Shown: positions 1 through 30,223, counted from the stretch's first letter. The stretch is 64,000 bases of DNA from Cyanidioschyzon merolae (GCA_000091205.1 AP006485.2); one strand, 5' to 3'. The notes: a model not told the origin generated them from the sequence alone. Made by a program: numbers and translations.

Positions 1-2445
1 CTTCTCGTCGTCGTCGTTACCCATTACGTCGTGCATCCAGACCAGAACCCATCGACTGCGATCTGCACGACTGTCTACTCGTCGATCCGTCCCACTACAT
101 ACCTCCTGTGAGCAAAGATATCAGAGGAGACACAGCGTGTGAAGTTTCGCGCATTTGGCACAAACAATGGCGAGCAGACACGAGTGCACGAAGGAGAAAG
201 CACGCTCCTGGAGGATATCGTCAGGCGTTGAAGGACACACGATCGATTTCGAACTGAAACGCGAAAGCCTTGAAGTGGAGCGGCGGATGCTCGTCTCAGT
301 CGACGAGACGTTATTCAGGACAAATGGTCAAACGATGTGTGCGTACTCAATGTGGAGCAAACTGTTGTGTATGAATAAACGGAAACCGAGCGTGACGTCA
401 ACGCGAGCTCTCGGGGCAGTTCAGTGGAGCGCTTTCCCACATAAATCACAGAATCGATACGCTCGTTCAACACAGCATCCTTCGTTGAACCACGCTTCGT
501 GGCTTCTCCGTCCCGCATTCCTCTGTCCAGCTGCTGCACGGCAACTTCGCTTTCCGCCACTCACAAGCGGTCAACAAGTGCGCTGCTGAGACTGGCGACG
601 AGCTGCCCTTCGTGACAACCTCTGTTCCCTCGTTCAGTGCAGTCGAATGCCTCCGCTCTGTTCGCAGAGGCAACGTCTGCGCTCTCGGATCCATAGACGG
701 GTCATTCGCGTGCACGTTGCGGTTCGTTCATAAACCGTTATTTCGACAGCCGTGCTCGCTCTCCTCAATCGCTAATCTGCTCTGTTGGTTCTGTGTTCGA
801 GAACCGGGGCGAACGGAAGGCCGCGCTTCGGTCCATGAGCGCGCACACCGTGGAAAAGAGGAGCAAGCGCCAAGTAGGCAGCAGTGGATACATATATCTT
901 TAGGAAAGGTACGCTCCGGTCCCGTCGTGCACCCCGTGCGCCCGAGTCCTGATGAAAACTAACCGATATGGCGCATCGTGATGATACACATGCCAACCTG
1001 CCAAATGGAGGACTCGCACTGGAAACCACCAGGCAGGCAAAGAAGCAAGAATGCTCCGGAATACGGGGACGAGCAGCGCCTGGAAGGAAAAATATCGGTG
1101 CAGCTATTGCTCAGTCTGGAACGGTCATCATAGCCTCGCTACCGAAACACACATCAACCGGGAGAATCACCCAAAAAGGAAGATACAGGGCGCCCTAAGG
1201 GGATGCGTAGCTTCTGACTCGAGCAGGGCTCGCTCCGCTTCCTTCGCTTTGACGTACCCTGTCAGGGTACGGCGCGTCGGCATCACCGGTGCAGCGCTGT
1301 CAGCTGTTCCAAAGCGTCTTGAAGGTTTCGATCAAATCGTCGTGCGACAACGTAACGGACACTCAGGGCAGACGATGCGAACCGTCCTGATTGTAGGATC
1401 AGTGATGTGTATACACGTTTCACAGAGGACCTCGAAGTTTCGGTGCGCCTGTCGTCGCTTCGAAGACCTACAGCGTCGGTGCCAATACGTACCAACGTGA
1501 ATCCCCGAAAGCCGAAATCATAGGCAGGCTCGTGTCGGGCGCTTCATGAGGCGCTGTATGTGCGTATTCGCGCCTCAGCTCACGGGCCCAGACTCGTGGC
1601 GACTAGTTCAAATGAATCTGCGTAACAGATACGCTACGAGTTTCCAGGCGGCGCATGTGAACCGTCTTTGGCAAGAGTACATGGGAGCGCGCCGGGGTTC
1701 ACAACGGTGTCTATCGTAAAGAGGCAGGAAACTTGCATTCGGCAACGTGTTGAATGCGTTGCAAGAAAAGGAATGGACTTGAACGTCGCGTTGTTTGATC
1801 GTAGCGTATTGGGCTGAGCGTGCTGTAGGACGCGAAAAGCGCACCCCTGTTCACTCGACAAGAGCGTACACCGAGTGCAGGAATCTGTGCTGCACGGTAT
1901 CTATCGAATCGTTCAGAACGACATACGAACACCGAGAGTGGGCGTGCACTGTGAAACTGGTAGAGAGGAAAACGCTGAAACACGGCCGAATGCACTTCAT
2001 GGTGTCCAGTACGCTGAGCGAACTTCACATACCGAAGCACTCGATGATCAGAGTCGTTGCTGTAGCGTACATCCAGCAGCCGTCGTAGGGAGACGCTCAA
2101 GCACATGCTGCACCGAGACTCTAATGCATCGATGAACCTACGGAAATGTCTTGCGCTTCCAGAATGTCTACCGGGTTGATGTCGAGCGAACGTTCAAGTA
2201 ACTGTTTCGAACTCGGACGAGGGAACGTCTCGAAACAATGAAGCCTTTGGGTGTGAAAAAATGTGGCAAGGGTAGCTGGCATTGGATTCTCGCCTGAAGC
2301 AAGGCACTGGTATGGTACATTTCGCAATGCAAAGTGACTGAAGCGCCCTATGTCTATATAGGTACCGGTACCAGTGTTCCTGTGTCATTGGTGAGCAGTA
2401 AAGATGATCCAGTATTCGATACTTTGAGCATACTCCATTTCGATG
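1..2445. repeat. Large dispersed or segmental direct repeat, copy A (at least 2,445 bp; left edge cut by the window start); about 98-99% identical to 27779-30223
   Basis: Direct comparison: positions 1-2445 align colinearly with 27779-30223 at a constant offset of 27,778 with only scattered substitutions. The ORFs inside (155-589, 1051-1500 and others) differ by mixed substitutions between the copies and match no family I recognise. A perfect hairpin acgtaccctg-t-cagggtacg lies at about 1253-1275. Confidence 0.9.
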
Positions 2446-3286
2446 TTTCCGGGGAACCCCGGTTAGACTTTTCGAGTGTATACCATAGAAAAATGGATCA
2501 CTGTTGTGAGGTCATTGTAGTTGACTCGTGAACGCGTTCGTGCAACGCTCGGTGCGACTCCACCAGTATCTGCGTCCGTCTATGTGTGTTCGTGTGTATC
2601 AGGGCATATGTTTTTCAACAAGTTCTGCGCATTGCTTTGCGACGCACATCAACGCCTGCGAAAAGCGTACACCATACCGTCGATACCGGGACTACGCGCT
2701 CAACCGCTGCGTCCGTCACTGCCACTAGACGTTGAGCCGCGCTCTCAGCTCTCCAGGCATTCATCTGCCGTATTCATGTTGCTGAGACTCCAAGAACTGT
2801 AGACCTAGCATGACAGTAAATGTTCACGTGCAGAGAGATGAGAAACTGCAGAGAAATACGAACCTTTCATATGTAGATATTAGGGATTGTGTAGCCTGCA
2901 CAGCATATCAAGCTTGTACTGCTCATCTCTACACATCCCATACAAAGCAAAACGAGACCCGGCTCCAGTCTTATATGCCAAATACCTCCTTTCCCGCACC
3001 TGCAATACCTTGTCAGTTCCATGCGAGTCTCCCATTCAAGAACGTCAAGACGAGAGCCTTGTTGCTACGAAGGTGCCGCGAACACTGCGGCGTCGACCGC
3101 ATCCAGAACACTCAGGTTTTCCGTTTAGTTGTTGCCCGAGCGACTGGATGTTTTGGACTTTTCCCGCAGATGCGAAACATCTTCGCCAAGACTCGATCCG
3201 AGAATAGCTCTCAGCGCAACTCTAGCGCGAATGTGAGAGATCGACCAACAGCCGTTCGGGAAACGGGTAGTTCGCAGACAAAACGC

Positions 3287-6200
3287 ATGGAGGTGTGGAA
3301 GCTTGCCGCCGAGCTGGGTTTCACTGATGCCCAGGTGGCGGTTGCCCTGAAACACGGTTGCCACTCGACAGAACAAATTTTAGACTACATTCTGACGCAC
3401 AAGATTCGCCCGGATGGCTCGAGCGCCGGCCCTGCGGCTGGAGCTCAGAGAACGTCACCGGAGCCTAACTCGGGCTTGCCTCCACCTGCCGACCGACACC
3501 GCGACCAGAAAGAAGGCACGAACGACCCGAACAACACAGAGCAGGCAGAGTTGCAAAGAGCAATCGAACTCTCACGCCGCGAGTACCTTCGGCCTAGAGA
3601 TGCATTGGCGTCCAGTACGGAGAACGCAGTTTCCAAACCCGTTGGTTCCCAAGCGCCGACCGCGGAGAGTCCGCTCGCTCTCGCCTCGGATACTGAACTA
3701 CAGCGCGCTATCGAAGCGTCCCTTGAAGAAGAACGAAAAGCCCGACAGCGCTTTGAACTCTCTCTCTTTAGGCCGTCGGAGGCATCGCTTGATCCGAATA
3801 CTGTCGTCCGAGTGTCACCGATGGAGCCAATTGGTCTCTGTAATGTCGGCAACACCTGCTACCTCAATTCCTTACTCCAAGTATACTACCATACCCCTTC
3901 TTTTGTTAGGCGTGTATTTTCGTGGCGCGAGGATCGAGTCGACACAGAAAAGACACCTCCGAAAGCCATTGATGTCGTTCGCGAGCTCCAACGCCTCTTC
4001 GCGTACCTGCTTCTCTCCGAGCGCCGTTACGCGGACCCTACCGGTTTCCTGTACGCGCTTGCGGAGACCTTGAATTCAGCTGCCCTGGATCTGGGAGCTC
4101 AACACGACCTCAGTGAGTTCAATGAGACGTTCCTGCGCTCCATAGAGGCTGCTCTGCAGACGGTAGACAACACGGAGCCATTGCAGCGCACATTTACGCA
4201 CTCCTTTGTTCAGGAATTGCATTGTCGAGTCATGGAGGGAGCGCATCAAGTCGCAATGGCGGTTGAAATGAATCCACAATGCTCATCCGATGGATCGGGC
4301 ACCCACGGGGCGCCCCAGTCCCCAGGAGCAAGCGATACACCAGCGCTCGACGCGATGCTGGAGCGGCTCAGCGGACTGCAGTCCGCAACGTGGCGGCTTG
4401 CCGACCGAGTTGAGGGAACCACCAGTGCGCTCATTCTCGATGTTGCTTCGGGTAACTGCCGGGACTTGTACGCTGCATTGGATGAGTATGTGCTCGCCGA
4501 TGTGGAGTATCAGCCAGAAAAGCTGACGCCGGGGACTCCTATACACGCAGATTCTAATCCGAGCGATACGCAGGCGTCGACGAGCGGGATAACAACAGCA
4601 CCAACGACGAATACCCGCACCGCAACCAAGTCTGTATGGTTTCAAACTCTGGCTCCAGTGCTTTTTATCTATCTTCAGCGATTGCGCTTCAACCAAGAGA
4701 CTCACATGCCGGAGAAGGTGAACGATTTCTTCGATTTCGCAGAGACAATCTATCTAGATCGGTACCTTGAGCGTAACCGTGAAGCAGCGCTCTTAGCACG
4801 ACTACAAGATGCGCAGTATTGCCGTGAATACGCTCAGTTAGAGCAGGAGCTCCAACGACTGCTTCACTTACCAGGGTTGCAAGAGCCATCGGATGTCGTC
4901 TACGAGGCGGTGCTTGAGCGACTACGCGCCCTGGATCCCGGAAATTCCTCACATCCGCCTGTCGTTGTCGACCAGAGCGAGACTGCACATCGGGAACAGG
5001 CCCTTGAGAGCTTGTCCTACGTCTACGTGACAGAGAAACAACAACGCGAACGGCTTGAGACACGAATGGCGTGTCTCGCGGAGGAAATGGTGCAAAACTT
5101 TGCCAGCCTGTCGAATGAAGCGTATCGGTTGCAGGCAGTGCTTGTACACGAGGGCGCCCCCGAGGCAGGTCATTATTTTGTTTTCATTCGATCGACTCGA
5201 GCGGGCGACTGGTACGAATTCAATGACCAACGAGTACGTCGCGTCTCGTGGGAGCATGTCCACTCGGTGGGGCGCGGTGGGCCCGGCACAGCCTCTGCCT
5301 ACGCGTTGCTCTACAGACGGGAAGAACACGGGGAGGCGAGCCAGCTTCCCTCCATCGAAGAGGCCAAGCGTCTGCTACCGGCGTCGCTCGTAGCGGAAAT
5401 CGCTGCGAACAACGCAGTGCTTCGGGAGGAGGTAGAACGCGAGAAATTGCGTCCAGTAGTTGAGAGCATCTCCGAACGCCTTCGACAACCGGAAAAGGAC
5501 GAGACATTCCTGGAGCGCCCTGAATGGCTTTGTCTTCATCAAGGTCAGGTCGCAGACGCTGTCCTCTTGGCAACATGTCATGTGTACAGCGACCAGACCC
5601 AGGGCGTAGATCTGTTCACGGCGCTGCGAAAACACCGTGCACTACGGACACATACAAACGACGAAACAGCAGGGAACACCGAGGCCAACGAGCCAGTGTT
5701 GCCGCCAACCAAGGCGTCAGCGTCCACGTTTCTCGGAGCGATGAAGTCCGCAGCGTCCGGGCCATTCTCCGACGACATTCGCGAACTTGCTACCCGTCTC
5801 GAGTGCGCAGACAACGAAACTCTGAACCAGCTGGAAAACGCATACACGCGAGCCCAACAAACGTATCGAGTGACGATTCTAGCGCTGATGCTCACCGGTA
5901 TCGCCGCAGAATGCATACGAGAAAGTTCCTGGCGCGATGCAGCGTCTGCGATCACCAGTATATACGATAAGGCGTCGGCGGGCATCTCGTATGCAGGGCT
6001 GACTGCCTCTCTTAGGAATTGTGTAGAGCAGCTTGTTTCCCAAACGAAAACCTCTGACCCGGAGCTGTCCAACTGGTTTGCGCACGAATACCTGCCAGAG
6101 AAGGCGCTTGAAAAGGAGCCAGCAGACAACTCGACACCAACGTCGACACCTGCACCCGCTTCCGGAGCTGCGCCTGGTAGCGAGATAGAGCGTTGCTCGC

Positions 6201-6343
6201 GACGCACGGCACCGCAGCGTCCAAGGTTACCTCCCTGTGATGAACGTATGGTCAGTGCCAGAATATCTGCGTTTGGAAGCCAAGAAGCGGCAGTTCGTTG
6301 GTACGATGGTCTCGTGCGGGGTTTGGGTTCGCCTCAGCGTTGA
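3287..6343 (+). CDS. Ubiquitin carboxyl-terminal hydrolase, USP25/USP28-like (UBA-like N-terminus, two UIMs, USP domain); the ORF is open from 2810 but the likely start is ATG 3287
   Basis: Cys box GLCNVGNTCYLNSLLQVYYH and His box GHYFVFIRS...WYEFNDQRV are present. Two UIM-like motifs EQAELQRAIELSRRE and DTELQRAIEASLEEE lie upstream of the USP domain. The N-terminus MEVWKLAAELGFTDAQVAVALKHG is UBA-like. The 1,019-aa ORF is uninterrupted. Confidence 0.85.
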   Translation: MEVWKLAAELGFTDAQVAVALKHGCHSTEQILDYILTHKIRPDGSSAGPAAGAQRTSPEPNSGLPPPADRHRDQKEGTNDPNNTEQAELQRAIELSRREYLRPRDALASSTENAVSKPVGSQAPTAESPLALASDTELQRAIEASLEEERKARQRFELSLFRPSEASLDPNTVVRVSPMEPIGLCNVGNTCYLNSLLQVYYHTPSFVRRVFSWREDRVDTEKTPPKAIDVVRELQRLFAYLLLSERRYADPTGFLYALAETLNSAALDLGAQHDLSEFNETFLRSIEAALQTVDNTEPLQRTFTHSFVQELHCRVMEGAHQVAMAVEMNPQCSSDGSGTHGAPQSPGASDTPALDAMLERLSGLQSATWRLADRVEGTTSALILDVASGNCRDLYAALDEYVLADVEYQPEKLTPGTPIHADSNPSDTQASTSGITTAPTTNTRTATKSVWFQTLAPVLFIYLQRLRFNQETHMPEKVNDFFDFAETIYLDRYLERNREAALLARLQDAQYCREYAQLEQELQRLLHLPGLQEPSDVVYEAVLERLRALDPGNSSHPPVVVDQSETAHREQALESLSYVYVTEKQQRERLETRMACLAEEMVQNFASLSNEAYRLQAVLVHEGAPEAGHYFVFIRSTRAGDWYEFNDQRVRRVSWEHVHSVGRGGPGTASAYALLYRREEHGEASQLPSIEEAKRLLPASLVAEIAANNAVLREEVEREKLRPVVESISERLRQPEKDETFLERPEWLCLHQGQVADAVLLATCHVYSDQTQGVDLFTALRKHRALRTHTNDETAGNTEANEPVLPPTKASASTFLGAMKSAASGPFSDDIRELATRLECADNETLNQLENAYTRAQQTYRVTILALMLTGIAAECIRESSWRDAASAITSIYDKASAGISYAGLTASLRNCVEQLVSQTKTSDPELSNWFAHEYLPEKALEKEPADNSTPTSTPAPASGAAPGSEIERCSRRTAPQRPRLPPCDERMVSARISAFGSQEAAVRWYDGLVRGLGSPQR

Positions 6344-6957: not shown

Positions 6958-8598
6958 TCACAGCATGACCAATCCGTTTTCTTCACACCGCAAAACACTC
7001 GTCCGCCAGTTATACACATAATAGTGGAGTTCGCCATCACCCGGTGCAAATTTGAGCTGATCGAAAACCTCTCGATTTTCCATCAAGTGCAGTGCATTAA
7101 AAACATCGAATCCTGCATTTTTCGCGAGAATAAGGGCATCTTGCATGAGGTCCTGAAACGAGCAACTCGTCGCTACGTTGTAGAAGGAATACGCTGCTCG
7201 CAGGGTGCGGTGTTTGCTACTGTGAATCACGCTCGATGGGAGTGAGTAGAAACTAATGAGGTCGGTGACGCGTTCGTTTGAGGTACCGGTGGCGCTGGTG
7301 TTTCGCTGCACGCGCACGAAACTGTAAATGACGTCATCGCGTGGCAAAAACCAGTGTTCAAACTCGGTTTCTGAGAAGCATGGATGGAATTTGGTGTGCG
7401 TTTCCAAGTACTGAGAGAGCAGTGCCCGAGCCGATGCGCAATGCCTTCGTTCCAAGGGCATCACGTCCGGGTGTAGCGGTTTCTCCGGAAGCGCATAGAG
7501 TCTTTCAGTGAGTTTCATGGTCATGCGAGGTCGTAATCTACTAAAACCGCACTCAATCAGTTTTCGGGCATCCAGCGAGCGATGCCAATAGCGACAGGTA
7601 ACCAGCGGCCTGGGAAGCAGCGTACCCGCCGTGTATACCGCTTGGTAGATGCCTTGGCGGTGCGCTCGTCGGGTGATTTCGCGGATCAGCACAGGGGCCA
7701 GTCGTTTGTGCCGAAGCCTCTTATGGATGCAGAGAAAGTTCACCTCGACGACAGCAAGAGCTTTGACATCTCGAAGTCGCATGGTTACCGGCACTGCGGC
7801 AATGAAGGCTACCAGTTTGGAGCTCGTGCTCACGCGAACGCCAACATGCCAGACACGTTTCCAACCTGGTGGTGATAGCGCCCAACGCAGAAACGCAGGC
7901 GAATAGTCGAAACGAAACTGGGCATCGTCGTCTTCGACGTAGTTTGAACGAAGCAGTTCATACAGTTCCTGGATATCGCTTTCGGCACTGATATCGAGTT
8001 CACACCAAGAGAACCCGGCAAGCAACGGGTACGGCGCCTCCGGCACTGACGCCGGGTCCAAGCGGGGACGCTCGTCAATGGGTCCATCACACGTCACACA
8101 GGTCTCGTTGTACTGAGGTACCGGTTGTGAGGACCAAAAACGATGCTGGTGTCGCTGCTGTTGAGGCGGCGCTTCGGGCGCCTGGTGCTCGAGTCTCAGC
8201 TGCTGTTCACTGAGCGCGGTTGAAGCGTCGGTGCCTGCAGCGGTGCTCCGTAGACTTAAAGCCTTCGCCAACCGCTCTGCAATGTCCGGCACATGCAGAC
8301 CGTACGCAGAAAGCGGGGTACCCGTGTCCGGTGAACCACCTGAAGAGGCGCCGTTCTGGTCAGTTTGCTCAGGCTGCGTCCCAGCAGTGCCGACCTGGCG
8401 CTCCGTGTGCGTCCCTATGCAAGGCTCTTCATCGGTAACCGCAGCTGCCTTGTCTTCACCGTTTCCAGAAGCTTCGTGATCGCTTTTCGACGCTTCCATC
8501 AAACAAGCGTTTCTGCTCTTTTTCGGTCCGCGAACGCTGCAAAGTCGCCAGTTTCGCTGCAGCTCGAGTCGCTGAACACATTCTCCTGGCTGACGCAT
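6958..8598 (-). CDS. Glycylpeptide N-tetradecanoyltransferase (N-myristoyltransferase) with a low-complexity N-terminal extension; start uncertain
   Basis: NMT signature blocks FWSSQPVPQ, LRSNYVEDDDAQFRFDYSPAFLRWAL and KRLAPVLIREITRR are present, with a C-terminal ...GLVML end. Confidence 0.9.
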   Translation of the reverse strand: MRQPGECVQRLELQRNWRLCSVRGPKKSRNACLMEASKSDHEASGNGEDKAAAVTDEEPCIGTHTERQVGTAGTQPEQTDQNGASSGGSPDTGTPLSAYGLHVPDIAERLAKALSLRSTAAGTDASTALSEQQLRLEHQAPEAPPQQQRHQHRFWSSQPVPQYNETCVTCDGPIDERPRLDPASVPEAPYPLLAGFSWCELDISAESDIQELYELLRSNYVEDDDAQFRFDYSPAFLRWALSPPGWKRVWHVGVRVSTSSKLVAFIAAVPVTMRLRDVKALAVVEVNFLCIHKRLRHKRLAPVLIREITRRAHRQGIYQAVYTAGTLLPRPLVTCRYWHRSLDARKLIECGFSRLRPRMTMKLTERLYALPEKPLHPDVMPLERRHCASARALLSQYLETHTKFHPCFSETEFEHWFLPRDDVIYSFVRVQRNTSATGTSNERVTDLISFYSLPSSVIHSSKHRTLRAAYSFYNVATSCSFQDLMQDALILAKNAGFDVFNALHLMENREVFDQLKFAPGDGELHYYVYNWRTSVLRCEENGLVML

Positions 8599-10701: not shown

Positions 10702-11029
10702 TCTTGCCACGAGCGCTCGGATCCAGGCCTTGAGTAACGTCTGAGATGCGAGCACTGCCCGTTGTGTGATTGTTTGCGTGCGAGGGTGCGTTTGTGTCGG
10801 TATACCACCGGTAGAGCGGGCGCACAGTCGAACGATGCCACCGGTGTACAGAAGCGGCGAGAAACCCGCTTTCGAGGAAACGTCTCCAAGTGATGTGCAG
10901 ACGCCCCCTCGTCTTTCTCGGCGGGCCATCTTCTACTGATTCCAAGTTTTTCTCATATAGTTCGACTTGGGAAGGTTGTCCAACAACGTTCCCTCCTGTG
11001 GACTCTGGAGGTCTTTTCTCCATTACCAA

Positions 11030-13089
11030 TCATCTCCGTATATTGATTGCGGCGTTAAAGTCTCGGTTAAAAACCTCCATCCGTTTCTTGCGATTGGAAG
11101 TTGTACTCACTAATGCAAATAGCCCCTGCACTTTTGCCCTCCTTTCCATTTGCTCCTCCGTCAGCGGTCCGTACTTTGCTATATCCTCATGGCTCCTCTG
11201 GCACTTTTCCATCTCCACCCTCTGAAGTGTACACCCCAGCTCGTGGTGTGTATAGGACGTTCGGAACTCATCTATCGGTATTATAACAAAACGCCGTGCA
11301 CACTCCTTGCACGTTCTTGTCGTTGGAGCTGGTGTACACCCTTTTTGGGTCTTCCATCGCCCTGCTCCGTATGCCACTACCAGCCTCTGATTTTCATCCT
11401 CCTTCAGGGCACTCAACTGATTGAAAAAATTCGCGAGCGCCCGCTGCTTTCCACAATACAAATTCATTCGCAAACGAGCCCACCGGGGCTTTGCATACTC
11501 CTCGCACAGCGTATCTCAATGAGGAACGCGAACTTCCATGAATTTTCGAAAAGCTGCAAAGTCCGCTCCTCGGCTCGTCACCTCGCTCAAAGCTTCCAGG
11601 TGATCCTTCATTCCTACATTCCATGCAGCAATTTCCTTCCTTGCATTCATTGTTCCCGGTTCTCGATAGTATATTGCTCTCGAGAACCTCAAAAAAGACG
11701 CATGTCTTTCTGACGTAAGTTACCATCAGCACTATCTTCCGTACGCTTCGGTGCTGCGATGGTTATGATATTCGTATTCCCAGGGTCCGCGCCGACGACA
11801 AAGTCGTTATCCTGCACTTTCTGCGTGGCAAAATCCTCCTCCTTCTCATCTTCATGCATCGCCACGCCAACGACAAAGTCGTTAGCTTGCACCTCCTGCG
11901 TCGCAGCACCCGCCTCCTTCTCATCTTCATCGTTCGTCACGCCAAAGACAAGGTCGTTATCATGCACCTCCTGCGTCGCAGCATCCTCCTCTTTGTTTTC
12001 TTCATGCTTCGCCGCGTGAACGACAAGATCGTTATCCTCTACCTCCTGCATCGCTGGATCCGACTCCTTCTCATCTTCATGCTTCGTAACGGGCGAAGCC
12101 GAGGGCGGAACTGGACGATTTTTCTTCAAGCGCCGATATTGTACACACGTGGCTACTCCATCGGTTTCGATCATCCCAGTGAATACCTTTTGTTTGCTCA
12201 CTTCAGATGTTTGAAATCGAAGATATTCTTCCAGTACGTCTCACGATTTTCGCCGGAGAACTCCTCCTTGTTAGCATTGAACACCGGACTGATCTCCCTC
12301 ATGATGCCGTAAAGGATTCTGGAGTCCATACTCACAAAATGTGACTTGATGTTGCACATTGGAACCACGTTGAAGCGCTTCCCCACTAGGGCAGCCTTCC
12401 ATCTCTCCCACGCTTCATTTTTCCCCACTCAGCTTCACCTCTGCCTTGCGTTCGAGTTCACGGTCCAAAAACACGAAATACCGCAGGACGAGGCGATAGT
12501 ATCTTTCCTTATCTTCTCTCAACTCTGATATCTTGTCTGTTGGATTCGCTAACTCCAAGACTGCGCGGTGCTCTTGTATAGCCGCACGGATTACAGAAGC
12601 TTCATTTGTGCCCCTGCGTGACGCCTTCTCTCCGACGAATTCGATCTCATCTTCATGCTTGCGATCGTTCGTGATGCCGTTGATAATCGCCCATTTTCCG
12701 TTACGAGAGATGCCCGGGTACAGTGCAAACACGGCGCGTATCATGAAATGTTCGAGGTTCATTCTGAAATGGTTCTTCAGATTCGTCAGGTACTTCATCG
12801 CCCCATATGTGTAGATATCCGCGTCACCACTGTATCGGGTACCCTCGAGGAGGAATTCCGCGAAGTTTTCGTGGAGGACTTTCACCCGCTTATTTTCCCT
12901 CCGCGCTTCCTCTATGCCAAGCATCAAGTGACGAAAAAATGTGTTGTCGAAAAACTCGTCCGGAAGCTCGACCGTTTCCATGTTCGTCACGTAGCGATAC
13001 ATCTCCCTCACCAAATGCGTCGGTCCTGAAGAAGCCTTTATCATACTCATGGAGTACGACTCGAGACGGTTTTTGATGGCGTCCCGCAA
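11030..13089 (-). pseudogene. TnpB/Fanzor-like RuvC plus zinc-ribbon nuclease gene, near full-length but split over at least four reading frames (frameshifts)
   Basis: The C-terminal piece (11030-11473) ends ...CKECARRFVIIPIDEFRTSYTHHELGC...NRDFNAAINIRR*, i.e. a zinc ribbon, a TS-motif and the D-x-NAA-x-NI RuvC-III block typical of IS605 OrfB/TnpB and Fanzor. An upstream piece (11689-12201) carries FVVGADPGNTNIITIAA, which is RuvC-I GxDxG-like. The N-terminal pieces 12198-12428 and 12415-13089 are clean but joined by +1/-1 shifts at homopolymers (ggggaaaaa, aaacaaaag). A 26-aa x4 tandem repeat sits just before RuvC-I. Confidence 0.6.
11830..12125. repeat. About 78-bp x4 tandem repeat in-frame inside the Fanzor-like gene (peptide unit DNDLVVxxxxHEDEKEEDAATQEVx)
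   Basis: Repeated protein units in ORF 11689-12201 and a matching nucleotide periodicity (...gacaaagtcgttatcctgcac... recurring about every 78 bp). Confidence 0.7.
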
Positions 13090-13642
13090 CTTTTCCTTCT
13101 ACGGATCCTTGATATATTTAAGAACACAGGCTTTCACCACTATCTCGTTGTACAGTTGCCTTTCTTGCCGCCTTCGACGTAGAACCTCGCCCCCTTTTGA
13201 TTCCTCATCACTTCCTGTTCCTTTTCGCTCCGCCATGTTTATCCTTCTTTTCCGACGGCCGGCGATATCGGCCCTCCGGGATCCTCCACTTCCATTTCCA
13301 TGACTTTCCTTTTTTTATTTTTTTTGAAAACGAACGCTCTTTGAACGCTTCTGTTATATACTTCGAAAAAACACTTGAATATACTCAATTGAGGGTCGGA
13401 ATAGGATGGAACAAAAAACCTATACTTTGCTACGACCTCAACGCGAATACAACTTTTACAGTAGAATAGCACGCCAGTGATCAGGATCACTGTTCCCCTC
13501 AGGAGCGACCAGAGCGTCGTGTCTCGTGCCCGCCGGATCTGCCAGGTGCGCGTGCACGCGCAGCGGCTGACATGCGCCCCGCCGCCGATCAGGAGATTGC
13601 TTCTGGATATGTCTATCTCAAAGCGTGATAACCTGTTGCTGA

Positions 13643-16608: not shown

Positions 16609-17139
16609 AGAACGTCGACATCATCATCTGTTCTAGCTGCGGTGGATTCATTTGGCTGCCTCAGTTCCGCTGAAGAGAACACTCATGCAGCAGCGCCCTC
16701 TTTTTGTAGAGTCATTGAAGACTTGTCCCAGACGTCTGGTGAAGTCCTTCTATTGGACATAGTGGTATTTAGCCGTTCTGCTTCAGTTCGAGCATTTTTA
16801 GATTCTTTCGAGGGGTAGAGCTGGTTTCATTCCTTCTTCTCAACCATGGTTCATCCCCATAGAAGAAGAGTTTTGCGTCCTGAATCGTCACGATCGCTCC
16901 ACCGGGCGAATTGATGAAGCGTTCAGCACATGGTGACCAACCGGGGCACATTTGGTCTTTATTCCGCATGTGCTGCTCGATGCGGGAAGGTCGTCATCTC
17001 AGGCTATAAACAAATGCGTTCATTTTCGAAAAATCTAAGGGATGAGCTGGAATATACACCCTAGGATGTTGAGTTGGAGCGAGGCCAGTGGAGCGTTTCG
17101 TCGACAGATCAGCACGAAGAGCTAACAGAGCACCCAATG

Positions 17140-17252
17140 GCACAGCGTACACGGCTTCGTGGTCTCCTTGTATCGATTAGTTCAACCAGTGGCAACAAAC
17201 ACATGGAGTTCACGAACCGAGACTTTAACGCTGCGATCAGTACAAGACGGTG
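17140..17252 (+). pseudogene. TnpB/Fanzor-like C-terminal relic, copy 2 (RuvC-III block only)
   Basis: RLRGLLVSISSTSGNKHMEFTNRDFNAAISTRR aligns residue-for-residue with copy 1 AKVQGLFALVSTTSNRKKRMEVFNRDFNAAINIRR. Confidence 0.55.
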
Positions 17253-17795
17253 TGCGATGCTAAAGACGATACCCGATTGGCAGACGCGATCTAACTTTGT
17301 GGAGCAGCCTCTTAGGCATAAAATAAACAACGAGAAAATGAAACCGATCGCAGACAGCCGGTCTAAACAGACTGGAAGGCGTCTTCGAGTGGATTTTCAT
17401 CTACGCTCCATGGTTTTGAGGCATTCCTTTTTGTCTCACTGACGATGAGCCTAATCGAGAAGGAAATCAAGGCCAGTATCTGATATCGAAACTTGTTGCT
17501 GCCCAACAGATAGATTTAGGGTTCGTTCTTCTGTATCAGAAAACCTAGAGTGCGGCATCCGCGTATTCTGTATCCAGATATACTCACCCGCGAATAGCTG
17601 CCGCACTGCCGTGGCATTCGGGCGATATCTGTCTTTCAGACAACATTCTCGCTTCCACGCAAAGCCCCTGACGCACAGGCCGCGGGCAGCACAACCAGTA
17701 CCTGCAGAGAACATCGTGCAACGCTCCCCAGCGTTTGAAATCTGTCGAGGTTGCCGTGCTCTCGCTCCGATGAAAGCTCCAAACGCATGCAAAGC

Positions 17796-23035: not shown

Positions 23036-23310
23036 AGCACTCTCTCATCGGATGAGCGAGCGTCTCGCTGTTCCACGTGCCTGCATCATAGATGAAGCGT
23101 CCAGGCATATGGACTCAAGTTGCTGACCGAACTTTCTCTGATAGCGCCTCAGCTGGGTGGCATTGCCTTCGGGATAGCACTCTCTCATCGGATGAGCGAG
23201 CGTCTCGCTGTTCCACGTACCGGCATCATAGATGAAGCGTCCAGGCATATGGACTCAAGTTGCTGACCGAACTTTCTCTGATAGCGCCTCAGCTGAGTGG
23301 CATTGCCTTC
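23036..23310. repeat. 140-bp x2 tandem duplication copying the last ~40 codons plus stop of the downstream minus-strand gene
   Basis: agcactctctcatcggatgagcgagcgtctcgctgttccacgt...ggcattgccttc occurs twice back-to-back. ORFs 23045-23248 and 23185-24330 end with the same peptide NATQLRRYQRKFGQQLESICLDASSMM..RGTARRSLIR. Confidence 0.85.
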
Positions 23311-24330
23311 AGAACCGCCAGTAGCGACGTACAGCACATCTCTCAACCGTTCCGGGGCATCTGCAAAGTATGCACTGAGCGCGAGGAGCGTCGGCGGTGC
23401 GTAAATCAAATCAAAATAAGACGGTAATGCCCGCCACAACCTGTAGAGTTCCGATTTCAGCGTCCCGAAACCACCGGACTCGTTCGGCAACACTTGTACG
23501 CTCCGTCGTAGCGACACCGCTGTGCCTCGAGAAGCTGCATGGGTACGTGCTTCCAGTCGCCGAAACTGGGCCTTCAGGTATTGGGAATCACCTACACAAG
23601 CGACTGCCAGTACTTGCACATTCGCTGGCAGGTACTGTTGCAGGTACCACGCGGTCGTGCCAGTGCCTGCTGGGACACACACCATTCGGATATCACGCAG
23701 GTCCTCTGCGGCAATAGACTCCGCCAGTCTGCGCAAACCAACCGCTGCCTCCGGACAAGCAACGCCTTGCGGCACGAATAACTTCTGCGGGTAGCCGATC
23801 TGCTCGCTTTGCCGCTGGTACTCCTGCTCGAGCTCGGAAACGGTGCTTTGATATTCGGTAAAGGTTCGGCACTCCCAGAGCTCCATACCAAGGGAAAGTG
23901 CCCGCTTGAGGTTCCCGCACGGCCGCTCTCGAAGCCAGCGCGGCAGCGGACGGGTTACGTACTGGAACCGGACCCCTAAAGCACTAGAGAAACCTGCAAG
24001 TGCGAGCATTGCGTTGCTCTGGGCCCCACCGTGGCTAACGAGGCGCTCGACCTTCATCGACGTGTTGCTAGCGGCTTCCGCAAAGGCCGCGAGTTTGCGA
24101 GCCTTGTTTCCACAAACAGCACCCAGCGGTCCATCACCTCCAAGACAGTTAATATCGTCGCGGAATACCTTGAGCGGAACAGGTGTCGCTCCAGCACAGG
24201 TGAAGAGCCACGGCGGGAGCAACACCGTCTCTATAAAAGTCGCCGCTCTGCTCGCAGGTTGTTGTGCTGCGACTTTCCTGTGCGCCCGACGAAGCCGGGT
24301 ACTGTCGCTGGTGCGGGGAGAACGCATCAA
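23185..24330 (-). CDS. PLP-dependent ACC deaminase / D-cysteine desulfhydrase family enzyme
   Basis: GGNKARKL (the PLP lysine motif of the ACCD/DCyD family) and GGAQSNAMLALAGFSSALGVRFQYV, with a tryptophan-synthase-beta-like fold pattern. Confidence 0.7.
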   Translation of the reverse strand: MMRSPRTSDSTRLRRAHRKVAAQQPASRAATFIETVLLPPWLFTCAGATPVPLKVFRDDINCLGGDGPLGAVCGNKARKLAAFAEAASNTSMKVERLVSHGGAQSNAMLALAGFSSALGVRFQYVTRPLPRWLRERPCGNLKRALSLGMELWECRTFTEYQSTVSELEQEYQRQSEQIGYPQKLFVPQGVACPEAAVGLRRLAESIAAEDLRDIRMVCVPAGTGTTAWYLQQYLPANVQVLAVACVGDSQYLKAQFRRLEARTHAASRGTAVSLRRSVQVLPNESGGFGTLKSELYRLWRALPSYFDLIYAPPTLLALSAYFADAPERLRDVLYVATGGSEGNATQLRRYQRKFGQQLESICLDASSMMPVRGTARRSLIR

Positions 24331-24533
24331 TGGCTCGGAAGCGCCTTTTCATCCACGCTGAGCTTGCCTTTAGCCAAAGCGTGTACGCACGGCGAACGCC
24401 AGTAGAGCCAGATACGAACGAGACCTTCGTACCAGGACAAGCGTTCCACGTAAGCCTGCGAAGAACGACAACACCGCCGCGCTTTCAGCGACGCGTCACT
24501 AGTCGTTTCCGAGCTCCGAGGTATCCAACGCGG

Positions 24534-25223
24534 ATGTTTTCGTTGCAGAATCCGTGGTATGATGCATCAGCGGCAGCAGCTGCAGCAGCAGCACCGCTAC
24601 TTGTTTCAAAGCGGCAGGCACTGTGCGTCGGCCTGGGGACCTCCAGTGCGCTGCTTCTCTACGTAACCTACTGGATCGCTCTCGGCCGTCTCCAGAGACG
24701 AGGAAACGTACCCGATATGCTGTCTGAACCAAAAGTGCGGCAAATCTTCCGCATCCTTGCTTTCATGGAACTCTTCGTCGTCTACTTGGCTCCGTTGCTT
24801 GCGACGGCGTTCGCACAGCTCAGCGGCGGTGCGAGCGTACCCCCGCTCGGGTCGACACTGAGCCTCGCTGCCCTGTACTTTCTCCCGAATATGGTCATGA
24901 CTGCAGTAAATATTCGATTGGAAGGTTTATTTCGAAAGCGAAAGCAATTGCTCGTTAACTACAGCTCCACTGCTGTCAATAATCTGTGGCGACTCATAGC
25001 ATATGTTCTGATTCTCCTGGATACGCAACGACGACGCCTGCAGGCACCTGCATCGGCTTCAGCCTCGGATATCCGGGCTCTCGCAGGCTTTCGGCTTGTT
25101 GCATACGCTGGTATCCTGATAAGTGTGCTCATTATGATCGTGTTCGAACCAGTTGCAGTCTGGGTACTTGCGCCTGCATCACTGCAGCGGGTCACTGCGA
25201 AGAAGGATCACCCGGGTTCTTGA
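24534..25223 (+). CDS. Hypothetical multi-pass membrane protein (ORF open from 24264; likely start ATG 24534)
   Basis: Four or five hydrophobic helices (ALLLYVTYWIALG, ILAFMELFVVYLAPLLATAF, LAALYFLPNMVMTAVNI, LIAYVLILL, LVAYAGILISVLIMIVF). Divergent from the upstream gene. Confidence 0.4.
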   Translation: MFSLQNPWYDASAAAAAAAAPLLVSKRQALCVGLGTSSALLLYVTYWIALGRLQRRGNVPDMLSEPKVRQIFRILAFMELFVVYLAPLLATAFAQLSGGASVPPLGSTLSLAALYFLPNMVMTAVNIRLEGLFRKRKQLLVNYSSTAVNNLWRLIAYVLILLDTQRRRLQAPASASASDIRALAGFRLVAYAGILISVLIMIVFEPVAVWVLAPASLQRVTAKKDHPGS

Positions 25224-25967
25224 TCCGGAGCGTTCAGGAGAATGCCCTCCATTTTCGCCAGGTCACACACGATTGTCGCAATACTTCCATTCTGGACCAT
25301 GGTGATGAGCTGCACGGAGGTCGTGCAGGGCTTTCTGGTCTCCAGCGTGTTGAACACTGAGATGCGCCCTGGATCCGTGAGCCATTGTGTTAACGTCGCG
25401 AACGTAGCGTTTCCGGAGCAAGTTGTGCCTCTGCATCGTTGATGTGCATCGGACAGAGCATTCAGTGTGTTGTGAGTGTAGCATGGCAAATGTGAGCAGG
25501 AGGAGCGATTATCCGTTGCGTCTCAAACGTGCCATTCCAGGCAAAACTGCTGTTTCGCGGTGTTTTGGCGCGTAGCTACGCTTCCCGCATCATTTCCTGT
25601 GCTTTCATGTAATGAGGGCTGTGCTTGATCGAGAAAATACTTGTGGTCATCGGATACATCCGCGATATACCTGACGAACATGTTGTGCTGAGGCCGATCA
25701 CACGAGCCGCACCGACGCGTTCTCCATACTAGCGAGGCGACTGATATAGCTCGTGTGCTGAAGCCAGACGCATGAGCTCTATTCATACCCTGGTCATCCC
25801 GGTTACATGTCTGATGACACCTCTCTATTCGAGACGCTCAGTCGCAGGTTCTCATGGGCTTCAGTCTAAAAAAAGCAGCTGAACGCGTACGTTCACGGAT
25901 TCGCTCGGGAGCAACAAGTCGCCTTGCCGTCTCGCACAGCCTTTTACCAGGCAGGACGCCCTGTTGC

Positions 25968-26354
25968 CTACAGCGGCGGCGCACCTGAGTCTAGTAGAGA
26001 CGTTCGCCACGTGTAAACGAGCGTCCAAACCAAAACAAATAACAGGAAAGCAGGCCACAGGTTTTCTGTGAAGCACAGCCAAGCAGTGTTCTCTCCGTAG
26101 GTTTCCAACTGCACGCCGATGAACTTGCGTAGCACAGTGGTCGGTAGAAAGCACGTGACCAGAATGTACGCTGATAGTGCCCCAACGCCCGTCAAAGGAA
26201 CCAGACCGAAGAGTAGCGCAAAACCTAGCGCACAGAGCAAACGCAAGTAGAACACCAGCGTCAAAAGCCTGGAGCGGTCCCACGAAGCTACCTCAACTCG
26301 AAGCCGCTTTCTCCACCGGTGTAGCACTGCACGCTGATGTGCTTGATCTGGCAT
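25968..26354 (-). CDS. Possible small multi-pass membrane protein (128 aa), unsupported beyond hydrophobicity
   Basis: Three hydrophobic helices (LLTLVFYLRLLCALGFALLFGLVPLTGVGALSAYILVTCFLPTTVL; FLLFVLVWTLVYTW). No homology recognised. Confidence 0.2.
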   Translation of the reverse strand: MPDQAHQRAVLHRWRKRLRVEVASWDRSRLLTLVFYLRLLCALGFALLFGLVPLTGVGALSAYILVTCFLPTTVLRKFIGVQLETYGENTAWLCFTENLWPAFLLFVLVWTLVYTWRTSLLDSGAPPL

Positions 26355-27778
26355 AGATCAGAGCCTGAAAGCGAGTGAACTTGTGTGTTCGTGTATAACC
26401 GACCTTTGGAGAGAACGTATGCGTTGGAGGACGCGAAGCACCAACCAAACACGTATCCTCTCTCAAAGCCGAGGATGCGATACTGTCGCAGAGGAACTGC
26501 TGCTGACGCCCAACGTACCGAGATGATCTGTTTATATAAGCTGTGGCATAGGGCGAGAGTTAAAGATCCTCCTCCATCAAGAATGAGCAATGGATACATT
26601 GTTCTGGTGCTGGTTTATGGAAGTGTGGATGCCCTTGTAGAGGATCCGCGGTCGATACCCTGCGTAACGACGGCTGGTGCGTATGTCGTCAATAGACTGA
26701 CTGACTGTCGAGGAGGCGGGAATCCGTGTCCCCATTGAAAGAACAGCACACCCGTAAACGAGCTCGTCCGCACCGCAAGTTCAGTCCTTGATCTGGTGGA
26801 GGAACCTGGCACCCGTTCGGAGTCGAGGCGAGCGGTCTATGGAACGCCCATTTGCGGGTTTCTCGGAAAGATATAGAAACACTCCCGCTGCGCGGCAGCA
26901 GCTGCAGACTGAAGTCTATTGGGCGACGCGCACTCTGAGTTGTGTTCCCTCTGGGCGCACGTGCTCATGAATGCCATTACATTGTCAGCCATGATGATGC
27001 CTCAAGGACGTCCGAGTTCACTTGGCACTATTCAGGTCCAGTTGACTGATCATAGCGGGACGGCGTCCAATGAACTGCGCAGAGCGGGTCCGCTGCACCA
27101 GACACGACGATCAGTTCGCTCACTGGCCAGAATGAACGCTTCCAACCAAATGCTTCGTATTGTGCAAACGCTACCGTTTACCTGGATACCGATACCAGCC
27201 TCTGGACGGGCGCCTCCGTGCTCCACTGTTGACGCTGGTGCGATGCACAAATCGATGATCCCGTTGGCGTCAACACTCGAACGATTCCGCGACCTGCCGG
27301 GGACGGCTCGGAGGCACCAGAGTCTCCTGAAACGTGACTCCTGTTAAATGCACTACATCTGCCGTTTTACGCAGTGCATCGGCATTGTGTCTGGGCCTTG
27401 TATCGAGCCGGTGCGAAGGCGCTCCGGGTCGAAAGCCAAGGCGATGTGCACCGTACGCATCTGGTGTCAGGAGGTCGCGCACTTGCGCCTCAAGTGAAGC
27501 GAGGAACACTGAGCACCTGTCTTTCAGACATGAGTGCGACGATGAATTCCTATTCCTCAATATCCAGGAAATCGTCTATGATACACAGAATAGTGAGTCC
27601 TGGAATGCAGAGGGCAGCACAACCTTTTTGGTTTTTCTCGAAGATATTTAAAATACAGAATTGGAACATTTTGATTCGAGAACGATCATGGTAGGGTTTT
27701 ATGTGTTCATGGCTCGCTTGAGACATAAAAGCCTCATACAAGTCAGCCATTCGACGGTTAGCGGGTGGATAAACCACC

Positions 27779-30223
27779 CTTCTCGTCGTCGTCGTTACCC
27801 ATTACGTCGTGCATCCAGACCAGAACCCATCGACTGCGATCTGCACGACTGTCTACTCGTCGATCCGTCCCACTACATACCTCCTCTGAGCAAAGATATC
27901 AGAGGAGACACAGCGTGTGAAGTTTCGCGCATTCGGCACAAACAATGACGAGCACACACGAGTGCACGAAGGAGAAAGCACGCTCCTGGAGGATATCGTC
28001 AAGCGTTGAAGGACACACGATCGATTTCGAACTGAAACGCGAAAGCCTTGAGGTGGAGCGGCGGATGCTCGTCTCAGTCGACGAGACGTTATTCAGGACA
28101 AATGGTCAAACGATGTGTGCGTACTCAATGTGGAGCAAACTGTTGTGTATGAATAAACGGAAACCGAGCGTGACGTCAACGCGAGCTCTCGGGGCAGTTC
28201 AGTGGAGCGCTTTCCCACATAAATCACAGAATCGATACGCTCGTTCAACACAGCATCCTTCGTTGAACCACGCTTCGTGGCTTCTCCGTCCCGCATTCCT
28301 CTGTCCAGCTGCTGCACGGCAACTTCGCTTTCCGCCACTCACAAGCGGTCAACAAGTGCGCTGCTGAGACTGGCGACGAGCTGCCCTTCGTGACAACCAC
28401 TGTTCCCTCGTTCAGTGCAGTCGAATGCCTCCGCTCTGTTCGCAGAGGCAACGTCTGCGCTCTCGGATCCATAGACGGGTCATTCGCGTGCACGATGCGG
28501 TTCGTTCATAAACCGTTATTTCGACAGCCGTGCTCGCTCTCCTCAACCGCTAATCTGCTCTGTTGGTTCTGTGTTCGAGAACCGGGGCGAACGGAAGGCC
28601 GCACTTCGGTCCATGAGCGCGCACACCGTGGAAAAGAGGAGCAAGCGCCAAGTAGGCAGCAGTGGATACATATATCTTTAGGAAAGGCACGCTCCGGTCC
28701 CGTCGTGCACCCCGTGCGCCCGAGTCCTGATGAAAACTAACCGATATGGCGCATCGTGATGATACACATGCCAACCTGCCAAATGGAGGACTCGCACTGG
28801 AAACCACCAGGCAGGCAAAGAAGCAAGAATGCTCCCGAATACGGGGACGAGCAGCGCCTGGAAGGAAAAATATCGGTGCAGCTATTGCTCAGTCTGGAAC
28901 GGTCATCATAGCCTCGCTACCGAAACACACATCAACCGGGAGAATCACCCAAAAAGGAAGATACAGGGCGCCCTAAGGGGATGCGTAGCTTCTGACTCGA
29001 GCAGGGCTCGCTCAGCTTCCTTCGCTTTGACGTACCCTGTCAGGGTACGGCGCGTCGGCATCACCGGTGCAGCGCTGTCAGCTGTTCCAAAGCGTCTTGA
29101 AGGTTTCGATCAAACCGTCGTGCGACAACGTAACGGACACTCAGGGCAGACGATGCGAACCGTCCTGATTGTAGGATCAGTGATGTGTATACACATTTCA
29201 CAGAGGACCTCGAAGTTTCGGTGCGCCTGTCGTCGCTTCGAAGACCTACAGCGTCGGTGCCAATACGTATCAACGTGAATCCCCGAAAGCCGAAATCATA
29301 GGCAGGCTCGTGTCGGGCGCTTCATGAGGCGCTGTATGTGCGTATTCGCGCCTCAGCTCACGGGCCCAGACTCGTGGCGACTAGTTCAAATGAATCTGCG
29401 TAACAGATACGCTACGAGTTTCCAGGCGGCGCATGTGAACCGTCTTTGGCAAGAGTACATGGGAGCGCGCCGGGGTTCACAACGGTGTCTATCGTAAAGA
29501 GGCAGGAAACTTGCATTCGGCAACGTGTTGAATGCGTTGCAAGACAAGGAATGGACTTGAACGTCGCGTTGTTTGATCGTAGCGTATTGGGCTGAGCGTG
29601 CTGTAGGACGCGAAAAGCGCACCCCTGTTCACTCGACAAGAGCGTACACCGAGTGCAGGAATCTATGCTGCACGGTATCTATCGAATCGTTCAGAACGAC
29701 ATACGAACACCGAGAGTGGGCGTGCACTGTGAAACTGGTAGAGAGGAAAACGCTGAAACACGGCTGAATGCACTTCATGGTGTCCAGTACGCTGAGCGAA
29801 CTTCACATACCGAGGCACTCGATGATCAGAGTCGTTGCTGTAGCGTACATCCAGCAGCCGTCGTAGGGAGACGCTCAAGCACATGCTGCACCGAGACTCT
29901 AATGCATCGATGAACCTACGGAAATGTCTTGCGCTTCCAGAATGTCTACCGGGTTGATGTCGAGCGAACGTTCAAGTAACTGTTTCGAACTCGGACGAGG
30001 GAACGTCTCGAAACAATGAAGCCTTTGGGTGAGAAAAAATGTGGCAAGGGTAGCTGGCATTGGATTCTCGCCTGAAGCAAGGCACTTGTATGGTACATTT
30101 CGCAAGGCAAAGTGACTGAAGCGCCCTATGTCTATATAGGTACCGGGACCAGTGTTCCTGTGTCATTGGTGAGCAGTAAAGATGATCCAGTATTCGATAC
30201 TTTGAGCATACTACATTTCGATG
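27779..30223. repeat. Large direct repeat copy B (partner of 1-2445)
   Basis: Colinear about 98-99% identity to 1-2445. Similarity ends at 30223 / 2445, and the flanks beyond are unrelated. Confidence 0.9.

Follow-up and report, generated by a model that had tools for sequence, protein, structure and literature searches.

Two near-identical direct repeats on chromosome 3 of Cyanidioschyzon merolae probably represent insertions of a dead Fanzor1 element

A 64,000-bp stretch of chromosome 3 of the alga Cyanidioschyzon merolae 10D, referred to here as the window, carries two near-identical direct repeats, between which lie eight annotated host genes (CMC070C-CMC078C) and one Fanzor pseudogene island. 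The two repeats, copy A on the left and copy B on the right, are most probably two insertions of one discrete 2,623-bp dead Fanzor1 mobile element, designated R; a probability of about 70% is assigned to this explanation. It is based on the boundaries of the repeated unit, on the Fanzor1 remains found within it, and on a comparison of the locus with metagenome contigs and an outgroup genome.

Extent and boundaries of the repeated unit

In a BLASTN self-comparison, window positions 1-2445 and 27779-30223 aligned in the same orientation with 98.978% identity, 25 mismatches and no gaps (E = 0), and similarity is lost abruptly past 2445 and 30223. In a base-by-base comparison, 13 of the differences proved to be transitions and 12 transversions, distributed along the entire unit, and four of the five differences that fall in a 149-amino acid (aa) open reading frame (ORF) are non-synonymous. 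A previous reading of the window, made from the sequence only, had described colinear direct repeats at these coordinates and this level of identity, with scattered substitutions lacking codon bias, and is borne out on both points.

Copy A is cut by the left edge of the window. The full extent of R became evident from L014, a metagenome contig from a related strain that carries the upstream neighbours of copy A. Its positions 8764-11395 align to 27601-30223 of copy B, while to the left of 27601 the flanks of the contig and of the window are wholly unrelated. Since the alignment starts at 27601, R can be defined as a discrete unit of 2,623 bp (27601-30223), and only its first 178 bp lie outside the window in copy A. 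The earlier suspicion that the repeat runs past the window edge was thus correct, but the extension is limited to these 178 bp and the repeat is not much longer. Copy B has the ends 5'-TGGAATGCAGAGGGCAGC ... CATTTCGATG-3'. When both termini of R were compared (TGGAATGCAG... versus ...CATTTCGATG), no terminal inverted repeat (TIR) was found to connect them. No target site duplication (TSD) is present at the flanks GAGTCC-R-CAGCAA of copy B or AAATGA-R-TTTCCG of copy A.

An independent estimate of the element boundaries is provided by copy C, an older member of the same subtype near the right edge of the window (Table 1), which is extended past the window by metagenome contigs L004, L005, L007 and L008. 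The alignment of copy C with R starts at 27582-27734 (weak before 27734) and runs to about 30106; on the side of copy C it is weak to the left of about 62985. Past about 30106, neither the last 117 bp of R nor the flanks have significant similarity to copy C. The left end of R therefore lies about 20-130 bp from the start of homology with copy C, and its right end about 117 bp beyond the point where homology fades. Because the ends of R fall within about 130 bp of the homology limits of an independent copy, R fits a discrete mobile element. A segmental duplication of host DNA, one of the possibilities raised in the sequence-only reading, would have arbitrary boundaries; it is the poorer description of the pair and was rejected on the same ground.

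The existence of two copies is supported by metagenome data. A variant of the 149-aa ORF (P0099) occurs on 24 metagenome contigs, and the 10 places listed represent two contexts only. The first is that of L014, the end of a 30.3-kb contig with the order SRP54 - Yip1 - conserved 314-aa gene - R, which stops exactly at the equivalent of position 2445. In the second context (L015-L023), R is followed by CMC079C and CMC080C, and the left ends of these contigs fall either at the 5' end of R or slightly upstream of it, or else in its first 200 bp. The contigs reproduce the junctions of R with the flank on the SRP54 side, with the left flank of copy B, and with CMC079C. An assembly artefact is excluded as the source of the pair by the 25 differences, the distinct flanks and these independent contig junctions.

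Fanzor1 remains in the repeat and their family context

The sequence-only reading had found nothing recognisably coding inside the repeat, which proved incorrect, as R holds a Fanzor1 pseudogene. The first sign of it was obtained by tblastn with the ORFs of the Fanzor island, which matched both copies with about 30% identity (E = 1e-10), together with further remnants at 17.0 kb and 51.4 kb. Two profiles were used to describe these remains. The first, A1, represents the C. merolae family and comprises 30 homologues of the C-terminal ORF of the island; the second, A2, represents the full-length Fanzor1 family (37 full-length members) and was mapped on six-frame translations. A1 matches R at 29420-29749 (E = 5e-20) and, weakly and in another frame, at 29868-29981. 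Against 1.84 billion representative proteins, A1 found 1,051, many of them 590-740 aa long and matched over the C-terminal third. A2 matches the Fanzor1 proteins of Parasitella parasitica (9cf0, E = 4.8e-17) and Guillardia theta (9cer, E = 2.5e-4). These solved structures were reached by the full-length family profile only; no match to a PDB sequence was obtained when the query was the short ORF, the C-terminal profile or the full-length relative P0265 alone. Both entries are presumably among the structures described in a published study of Fanzor proteins, which reports structures from three organisms (PMC11423790).

On the A2 profile, R covers positions 37-101 (28925-29128, a weak match with E ~0.007 in the frame of the 149-aa ORF), 435-549 (29402-29752, E = 2e-13) and 567-589 (29874-29942, weak and frameshifted). 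Copy C keeps positions 45-586, as recovered in L004, including a central Fanzor1 region absent from R, whereas R jumps from about 101 to 435. Since copy C retains this part of the profile while R does not, R has undergone an internal deletion of about 330 codons (~0.9-1 kb). The region deleted includes RuvC-I. The 2,623 bp of R and the ~0.9 kb kept by copy C add up to about 3.5 kb, compared with ~3-3.2 kb for the described unit of the family (see below).

R is composed of a non-coding 5' region of about 1.2 kb, the 149-aa stub, the deletion, a stop-ridden and frameshifted C-terminal remnant, and a tail of about 280 bp. The motifs 'IESFRTT' and 'HRDSNASMNL' are readable in its translation. The stub is the longest ORF in R; A2 positions ~101-435 are gone, and the remainder contains stops and a frameshift. 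Judged by its sequence, R is not an active Fanzor/OMEGA nuclease locus, as it has no intact ORF of the expected length (about 600-700 aa) that encodes the RuvC catalytic triad. All lesions are common to both copies, so R was already dead and non-autonomous when it was duplicated. The differences between R and copy C have no 3-base (codon) periodicity that would indicate coding constraint, and the decay of R appears to be neutral. The annotated gene CMC069C in copy A is probably a pseudogene stub inside a dead transposon and not a protein-coding gene.

Searches of curated libraries were of little help: the best Pfam match was PF07282 with E = 0.07 (0.0023 for a full-length relative), and NCBIfam gave nothing. 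The AlphaFold2 model of the C-terminal ORF of the island was unusable (pLDDT 44). The last 244 nt of R fold no better than shuffled sequences (z = -0.75), which gives no indication of an omega-RNA, and R has no Rfam match and no tRNA.

The window contains six remnants of the Fanzor1 family (Table 1). An interspersed element of C. merolae was described by Nozaki et al. in 2007 as present in 253 copies with a mean length of 3.2 kb, making up about 5% of the genome; it is transcribed, and weak similarity to WSV486 of the white spot syndrome virus, WSSV, is found in the truncated ORF of each copy (PMC1955436). Bao and Jurka (2013) listed WSSV among the Fanzor1-bearing genomes, and described the C. 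merolae Fanzor1 family CMe-1A as about 150 copies of about 3 kb, with some 80% identity to their consensus, without TIRs, with the TSD undetermined and the class unknown (PMC3627910). The 5' 635 bp of CMe-1A are shared with TE-N2_CMe. By the profile matches described above, R is placed within this Fanzor1-bearing interspersed family, and at the family level the finding is already known.

The sequence-only reading had also considered a widespread intergenic repeat family. This holds at the family level (253 copies) but not for the R subtype, which appears to comprise two young copies and one old copy and is not a generic high-copy repeat. In the metagenome contigs, a 28-mer conserved between R and copy C occurs at R-type (2) and C-type (4) loci only, and a protein search with CMC069C returned 2 clusters. 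By comparison, the C-terminal ORF of the island has 208 homologous clusters at 90% identity from Cyanidioschyzon-bearing metagenomes, consisting of ORF fragments of 90-280 aa that are 62-99% identical to it. At the DNA level, R aligns with island-type copies over about 440 bp only.

Table 1. Coordinates of the repeat copies, Fanzor1 remnants and associated features in the window
Feature	Position	Strand	Evidence
Copy A of element R, 3' 2,445 bp of the 2,623-bp unit	1..2445	+	BLASTN to 27779-30223; left extension deduced from L014
149-aa ORF of copy A = CMC069C (BAM79008.1, hypothetical protein), N-terminal Fanzor1 stub	1051..1500	+	exact match to BAM79008.1
C-terminal Fanzor1 remnant, copy A equivalent	1624..1974	+	counterpart of 29402..29752
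Frameshifted RuvC-III remnant, copy A equivalent	2096..2164	+	counterpart of 29874..29942
8-bp junction TTTCCGGG between copy A and D2	2446..2453	.	sequence read
D2, 705-bp second repeat	2454..3158	+	L013 copy with 14 mismatches
Fanzor island, near full-length frameshifted Fanzor1 pseudogene of another subtype	11006..13176	-	A2 18-390 E = 7e-59, 385-592 E = 5e-65
Decayed Fanzor1 C-terminal remnant	16948..17397	+	A1 110-255 E = 4e-30; tblastn E = 7e-11
Copy B of element R, complete, 2,623 bp	27601..30223	+	L014 alignment; flanks differ on both sides
149-aa ORF twin in copy B, unannotated in 10D	28829..29278	+	5 nt/4 aa differences from the copy A ORF
C-terminal Fanzor1 remnant of copy B, with stops, RuvC-II/'VDEFRTT'-type region, A2 435-549	29402..29752	+	A2 2e-13, A1 5e-20, tblastn 1e-10
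Frameshifted RuvC-III remnant of copy B, 'HRDSNASMNLRK' vs consensus 'NRDLNAAxNIRR'	29874..29942	+	weak profile matches, frame unlike the preceding remnant
Isolated RuvC-III motif remnant 'NRDFNAAINIQR'	51385..51429	-	weak tblastn/profile matches
Copy C, old copy of the R subtype, ~70% identity, runs off the right edge	62821..64000	+	nhmmer with copy B, E = 1.7e-48 and 3e-17

In several respects R resembles the element of Nozaki and CMe-1A: it resides in the same genome, contains a truncated WSV486/Fanzor1-type ORF, is intergenic, has no TIRs and no recognisable TSD, and gives rise to spurious annotated ORFs, and transcription has been reported for the family. It differs from the described CMe-1A in being internally deleted and in having just two copies, which are about 1% apart; in the described family, divergence from the consensus is about 20%. 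What R and copy C have in common with the abundant island-type copies is limited to the Fanzor C-terminal region, at about 30% aa identity. A second likeness is to the decayed or TnpB-only derivatives of IS200/IS605 and IS607 elements, in which, as in R, a TnpB-superfamily RuvC remnant fills most of a short element without TIR or TSD; in both cases any mobilisation must occur in trans. In contrast to these derivatives, R has a eukaryotic host and a 1.2-kb non-coding 5' region, neither subterminal hairpins nor omega-RNA-like structure were detected in it, and no Y1 or serine recombinase partner is known. The functional Fanzor1 nucleases of Parasitella and Guillardia are linked to R as members of a homologous family by a chain of profile matches, but the R gene is a pseudogene with stops, a frameshift and the loss of about 330 codons including RuvC-I, no guide RNA was detected in it, and nuclease function is not expected.

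Origin of the two copies

The neighbourhood of copy A was compared with that of an outgroup genome, GCA_041825655.1 (JBBELT010000080.1, contig L026), in which USP is 55% identical. The outgroup has the gene order SRP54-Yip1-311-aa gene-USP-NMT-p24-ARM-like-CDF, and at this locus there is no R-like DNA and no Fanzor profile match; the island is absent as well. Since the outgroup has the neighbourhood of copy A without R, this neighbourhood is ancestral and copy A is an insertion, and the same applies to the island. On this comparison, both Fanzor1 insertions are placed after the split from the outgroup lineage. The conserved order also agrees with the earlier statement that the repeats are not the ends of a long terminal repeat (LTR) pair, as the enclosed genes are host genes and the order USP-NMT-p24-ARM-CDF is kept in an outgroup free of the repeat. 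An LTR retrotransposon was rejected on the basis of its supposed internal genes (USP, NMT, p24, CDF and others), the outgroup-conserved synteny without repeats, and the lack of a TSD.

In the favoured explanation, some transposition machinery that leaves neither TIR nor TSD would have copied the dead element in trans. One copy of R lies between CMC078C and CMC079C (copy B), the other in the intergenic space before USP (copy A). Neutral drift to about 1% divergence may have followed, accompanied by occasional homogenisation through gene conversion. At present R would have no nuclease role; it would constitute 2.6 kb of direct homology in two copies 25 kb apart, able to recombine, and would harbour the spurious ORF CMC069C.

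Several points weigh against this explanation. Neither a TSD nor an empty site was found for R, so that its transposition is a matter of inference. No transposase is known for the Fanzor1 family CMe-1A (PMC3627910), and no intact autonomous partner of R was identified in this analysis. Most family members are old, being about 80% identical to the consensus (PMC3627910), which makes recent mobility of a dead copy somewhat unexpected. The 3' terminus of the family has no independent support from copy C, to which the last 117 bp of R cannot be aligned, and the left flank of copy A in 10D was deduced from the related-strain contig L014 and the annotated gene order. Finally, copy A ends 0-8 bp from a second recent repeat, D2, which a simple independent insertion does not predict and which hints at a more complex event.

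The D repeat occurs twice. D2 is separated from copy A by 8 bp and from the USP start codon (3170) by 11 bp; its twin, D1, is located outside the window, about 30 kb upstream, between CMC057C (HAD) and CMC059C (EngA). Both copies lie directly upstream of gene starts. D1-type sequences were found at L013 3258-3962, L002 9645-10349 and L024 3539-3658. L013 has the order HAD - D - EngA and L002 the order HAD - D - USP, L024 and L025 contain HAD and then the first 120 bp of D, where they end, and the start of L001 lies 101 bp short of the right end of D. At the point where copy A meets D2, TTTCCGGG followed by GAACCCCGG (2446-2462) forms the perfect palindrome CCGGGGAACCCCGG, and the corresponding 8 bp at the HAD-side copy are TATGCGAA. 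The left part of the 10D layout reads HAD - D1 - (CMC059C..067C) - 1-kb repeat of another family - copy A - TTTCCGGG - D2, and the right part D2 - USP...CMC078C - 2.4 kb - copy B - CMC079C. The two R copies are spaced 27,778 bp apart, which is the value obtained by measuring from the start of D2 (2454) to the end of copy B (30223) and adding the 8-bp junction; the joint between copy A and D2 therefore resembles a head-to-tail junction.

Two further proposals concerning D were discarded. D could be regarded as part of the element, giving a unit of 3.3 kb (R + D), but nothing similar to D accompanies copy C or the other remnants. The 62-kb contig L002, in which HAD and USP are joined (7651-13534) and CMC059C-069C are skipped, was considered as an empty site, with copy A and 10 genes absent in some strains, and rejected because the join passes through the two-copy repeat D. 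A 30-kb insertional translocation or macrotransposon, an idea built on L002, was rejected as well in view of the order HAD - 705 bp - EngA in L013. The D copy of L002 is like that of L013 in its left part and like 10D D2 in its right part, and the contig represents either a D1xD2 recombinant haplotype or a chimera assembled through D.

The head-to-tail appearance of the joint suggests an origin by recombination or replication, which is considered unlikely. According to this scenario, a tandem duplication of the 27,778-bp segment D2-USP...CMC078C-X-R, where X is the left flank of copy B, joined R to D2 with TTTCCGGG as filler, and the upstream unit was then deleted except for R; alternatively, another rearrangement of the type of microhomology-mediated break-induced replication (MMBIR) or non-allelic homologous recombination (NAHR) produced this joint and D1 as well. 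The spacing makes the joint of copy A and D2 exactly like that of a tandem duplication, a palindrome-forming 8-bp filler is typical of end-joining, and two recent repeats (R at ~1% and D at ~2% divergence) are interleaved within 60 kb, while the family is otherwise old with no transposase known. However, a second event would be required with its right breakpoint at the 5' end of the element, some 20-130 bp from the start of homology with copy C, no trace of a second USP, NMT or p24 was found in the 10D proteome clusters, CMC059C-CMC068C lie upstream of copy A in the ancestral outgroup order, and D1 is not explained by the duplication alone. The extra breakpoint and the unexplained D1 are the reasons why this origin is rated lower. 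In its simplest form, with a tandem duplication of 27.8 kb truncated at the edge of the window, it was rejected, as the genes upstream differ (CMC059C-CMC068C in 10D; SRP54-Yip1... before R in L014) and each of the USP, NMT and p24 clusters has one NCBI member only, with no second 10D gene.

A variant of the two-insertion explanation would account for the abutment of copy A and D2 as well. An R-type Fanzor1 element would have been mobilised on the time scale of divergence within the species, without TIR or TSD, and a duplication of flanking sequence initiated at the element end, by a transduction-like process or through a circular or tandem intermediate, would have placed D beside it. This is regarded as distinctly unlikely.

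Repair of a double-strand break upstream of USP, which captured an extrachromosomal or ectopic R, perhaps with D in the same or a linked event and without any transposase, is rated as very unlikely. It would agree with a non-templated or snap-back 8-bp junction, with the lack of a TSD, and with a donor, copy B, only 25 kb away; RNA, cDNA or excised DNA was possibly available, since the elements are transcribed (PMC1955436) and CMC069C is expressed at a low level according to the PMC6606799 supplement. On the other hand, captured filler would seldom comprise an entire element, the boundaries on either side agree with those of the element to about 130 bp, and there is no poly(A) or truncation signature. 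Least credible, to the point of being negligible, is an assembly duplication artefact or a collapsed allele, a concern raised in the sequence-only reading for which no supporting evidence was found: the 25 differences are fixed and the flanks distinct on both sides, the 10D sequence has been finished from telomere to telomere (PMC1955436), both left contexts and the right context of copy B recur in independent metagenome assemblies, and the metagenome contigs terminate at the very ends of R, which is what a true two-copy repeat should produce.

Exchange between the copies, the gene block and other repeats

Site patterns were compared among five sequences, namely copies A and B of 10D, L014 (wild, SRP54 context), L015 (wild, CMC079C context) and L006. 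Ten sites are private to copy A and nine to copy B. At a further 14 sites the two 10D copies agree with each other while L014 and L015 share the other state, and no site has the orthology pattern, in which copy A and its wild counterpart are set against copy B and its wild counterpart. Since both genomes have R beside the same left flank, the duplication should predate their split. With a duplication older than the split, 14 within-genome sites against none of the orthology type indicate concerted evolution. These patterns suggest gene conversion between the copies, with the caveat that metagenome contigs can be mosaics.

The R copies, which are direct, 2.6 kb long, about 99% identical and 25 kb apart and have signs of non-crossover exchange, are comparable to the low-copy repeats through which NAHR occurs in human genomic disorders or in Ty/delta deletions of yeast. 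The earlier proposal that the pair is a substrate for NAHR thus finds support as regards non-crossover exchange, while there is no established crossover product. None of the contigs examined gave a verified allele with the 25-kb block deleted or duplicated. The organism is haploid and the block includes NMT as well as other genes that are probably essential, so a deletion product is unlikely to persist. In one contig (L016, 1-6794), a B-type R is preceded by 94 bp of the flank on the SRP54 side and followed by CMC079C-CMC080C; it may be an A x B crossover product with the 25-kb block deleted, or an assembly chimera.

The position of the window on chromosome 3 was established by exact protein matches. 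Over 1,057 residues, the USP ORF (2810-6343) shows full identity with BAM79009.1 (CMC070), and further ORFs match BAM79008.1 (CMC069C), BAM79017.1 (CMC079C) and BAM79018.1 (CMC080C) exactly. In the supplementary expression table of PMC6606799, the order of genes is CMC053C RPL35, 054 GlyRS, 055 lathosterol oxidase, 057 HAD-type hydrolase, 059 EngA, 060, 062 TIP30-like, 063 NEP1, 064 eIF3i, 065, 066 SRP54, 067, 068, 069, 070 USP, 071 NMT, 072 Tmp21/p24, 074 ARM-like, 075 CDF/Mn transporter, 076 Nqr6-like, 077 ACC deaminase, 078, 079 and 080 biotin ligase; the same table gives low expression for CMC069C. The sequence-only reading had correctly recognised the block between the repeats as ordinary host genes but had missed CMC078C (24330-25220). 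Copy B is located between this gene and CMC079C (31225-32136, minus strand) and has no annotated protein. The 2.4 kb between CMC078C and copy B (25224-27600) are without long ORFs, and no similarity of this segment to the rest of the window or to the retrieved loci was found. Metagenome contig L006 begins exactly at 25192.

Other repeats were also observed in the window. A second interspersed family of about 1 kb is present at 34186-35140 (+), 51639-52573 (-) and 58894-59962 (-) and in L014 at 7262-8318 (nhmmer E = 1e-59 to 1e-80), and has no Fanzor profile match. The copy in L014, which may represent CMC068C, is located 445 bp upstream of copy A, and the copy at 51639-52573 adjoins the RuvC-III remnant at 51.4 kb. 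Within the Fanzor island, four copies of a 75-bp tandem repeat (11790-12086, ~80% identity) encode an acidic 25-aa repeat in the Fanzor frame. A tandem duplication of 140 bp (23036-23310, 2.0 copies, 97%) takes in the 3' end of CMC077C, an ACC deaminase-like gene with its stop near 23185. An intergenic tandem array at 42937-43498 consists of 6.9 copies of an 82-bp unit (99% matches) flanked by diverged copies (42865-43602).

The main value of these results is corrective, as an apparently non-coding segmental duplication is probably a pair of dead transposons of an already described family. The divergence of about 1% within the pair, against about 20% in the family, suggests that at least one Fanzor1-type element has been copied recently, though no transposase is known. 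With their signs of gene conversion, the R copies are probably real substrates for recombination on either side of eight host genes, in a model alga in which gene targeting is practised. The junction of R and D is the only element of the locus that could lead somewhere new. If a recent mobilisation of R with abutment to D were true, it would offer the first natural handle on the movement of the 'unclassified' Fanzor1 transposons, and on the reshuffling of host promoters, in a tractable haploid alga.

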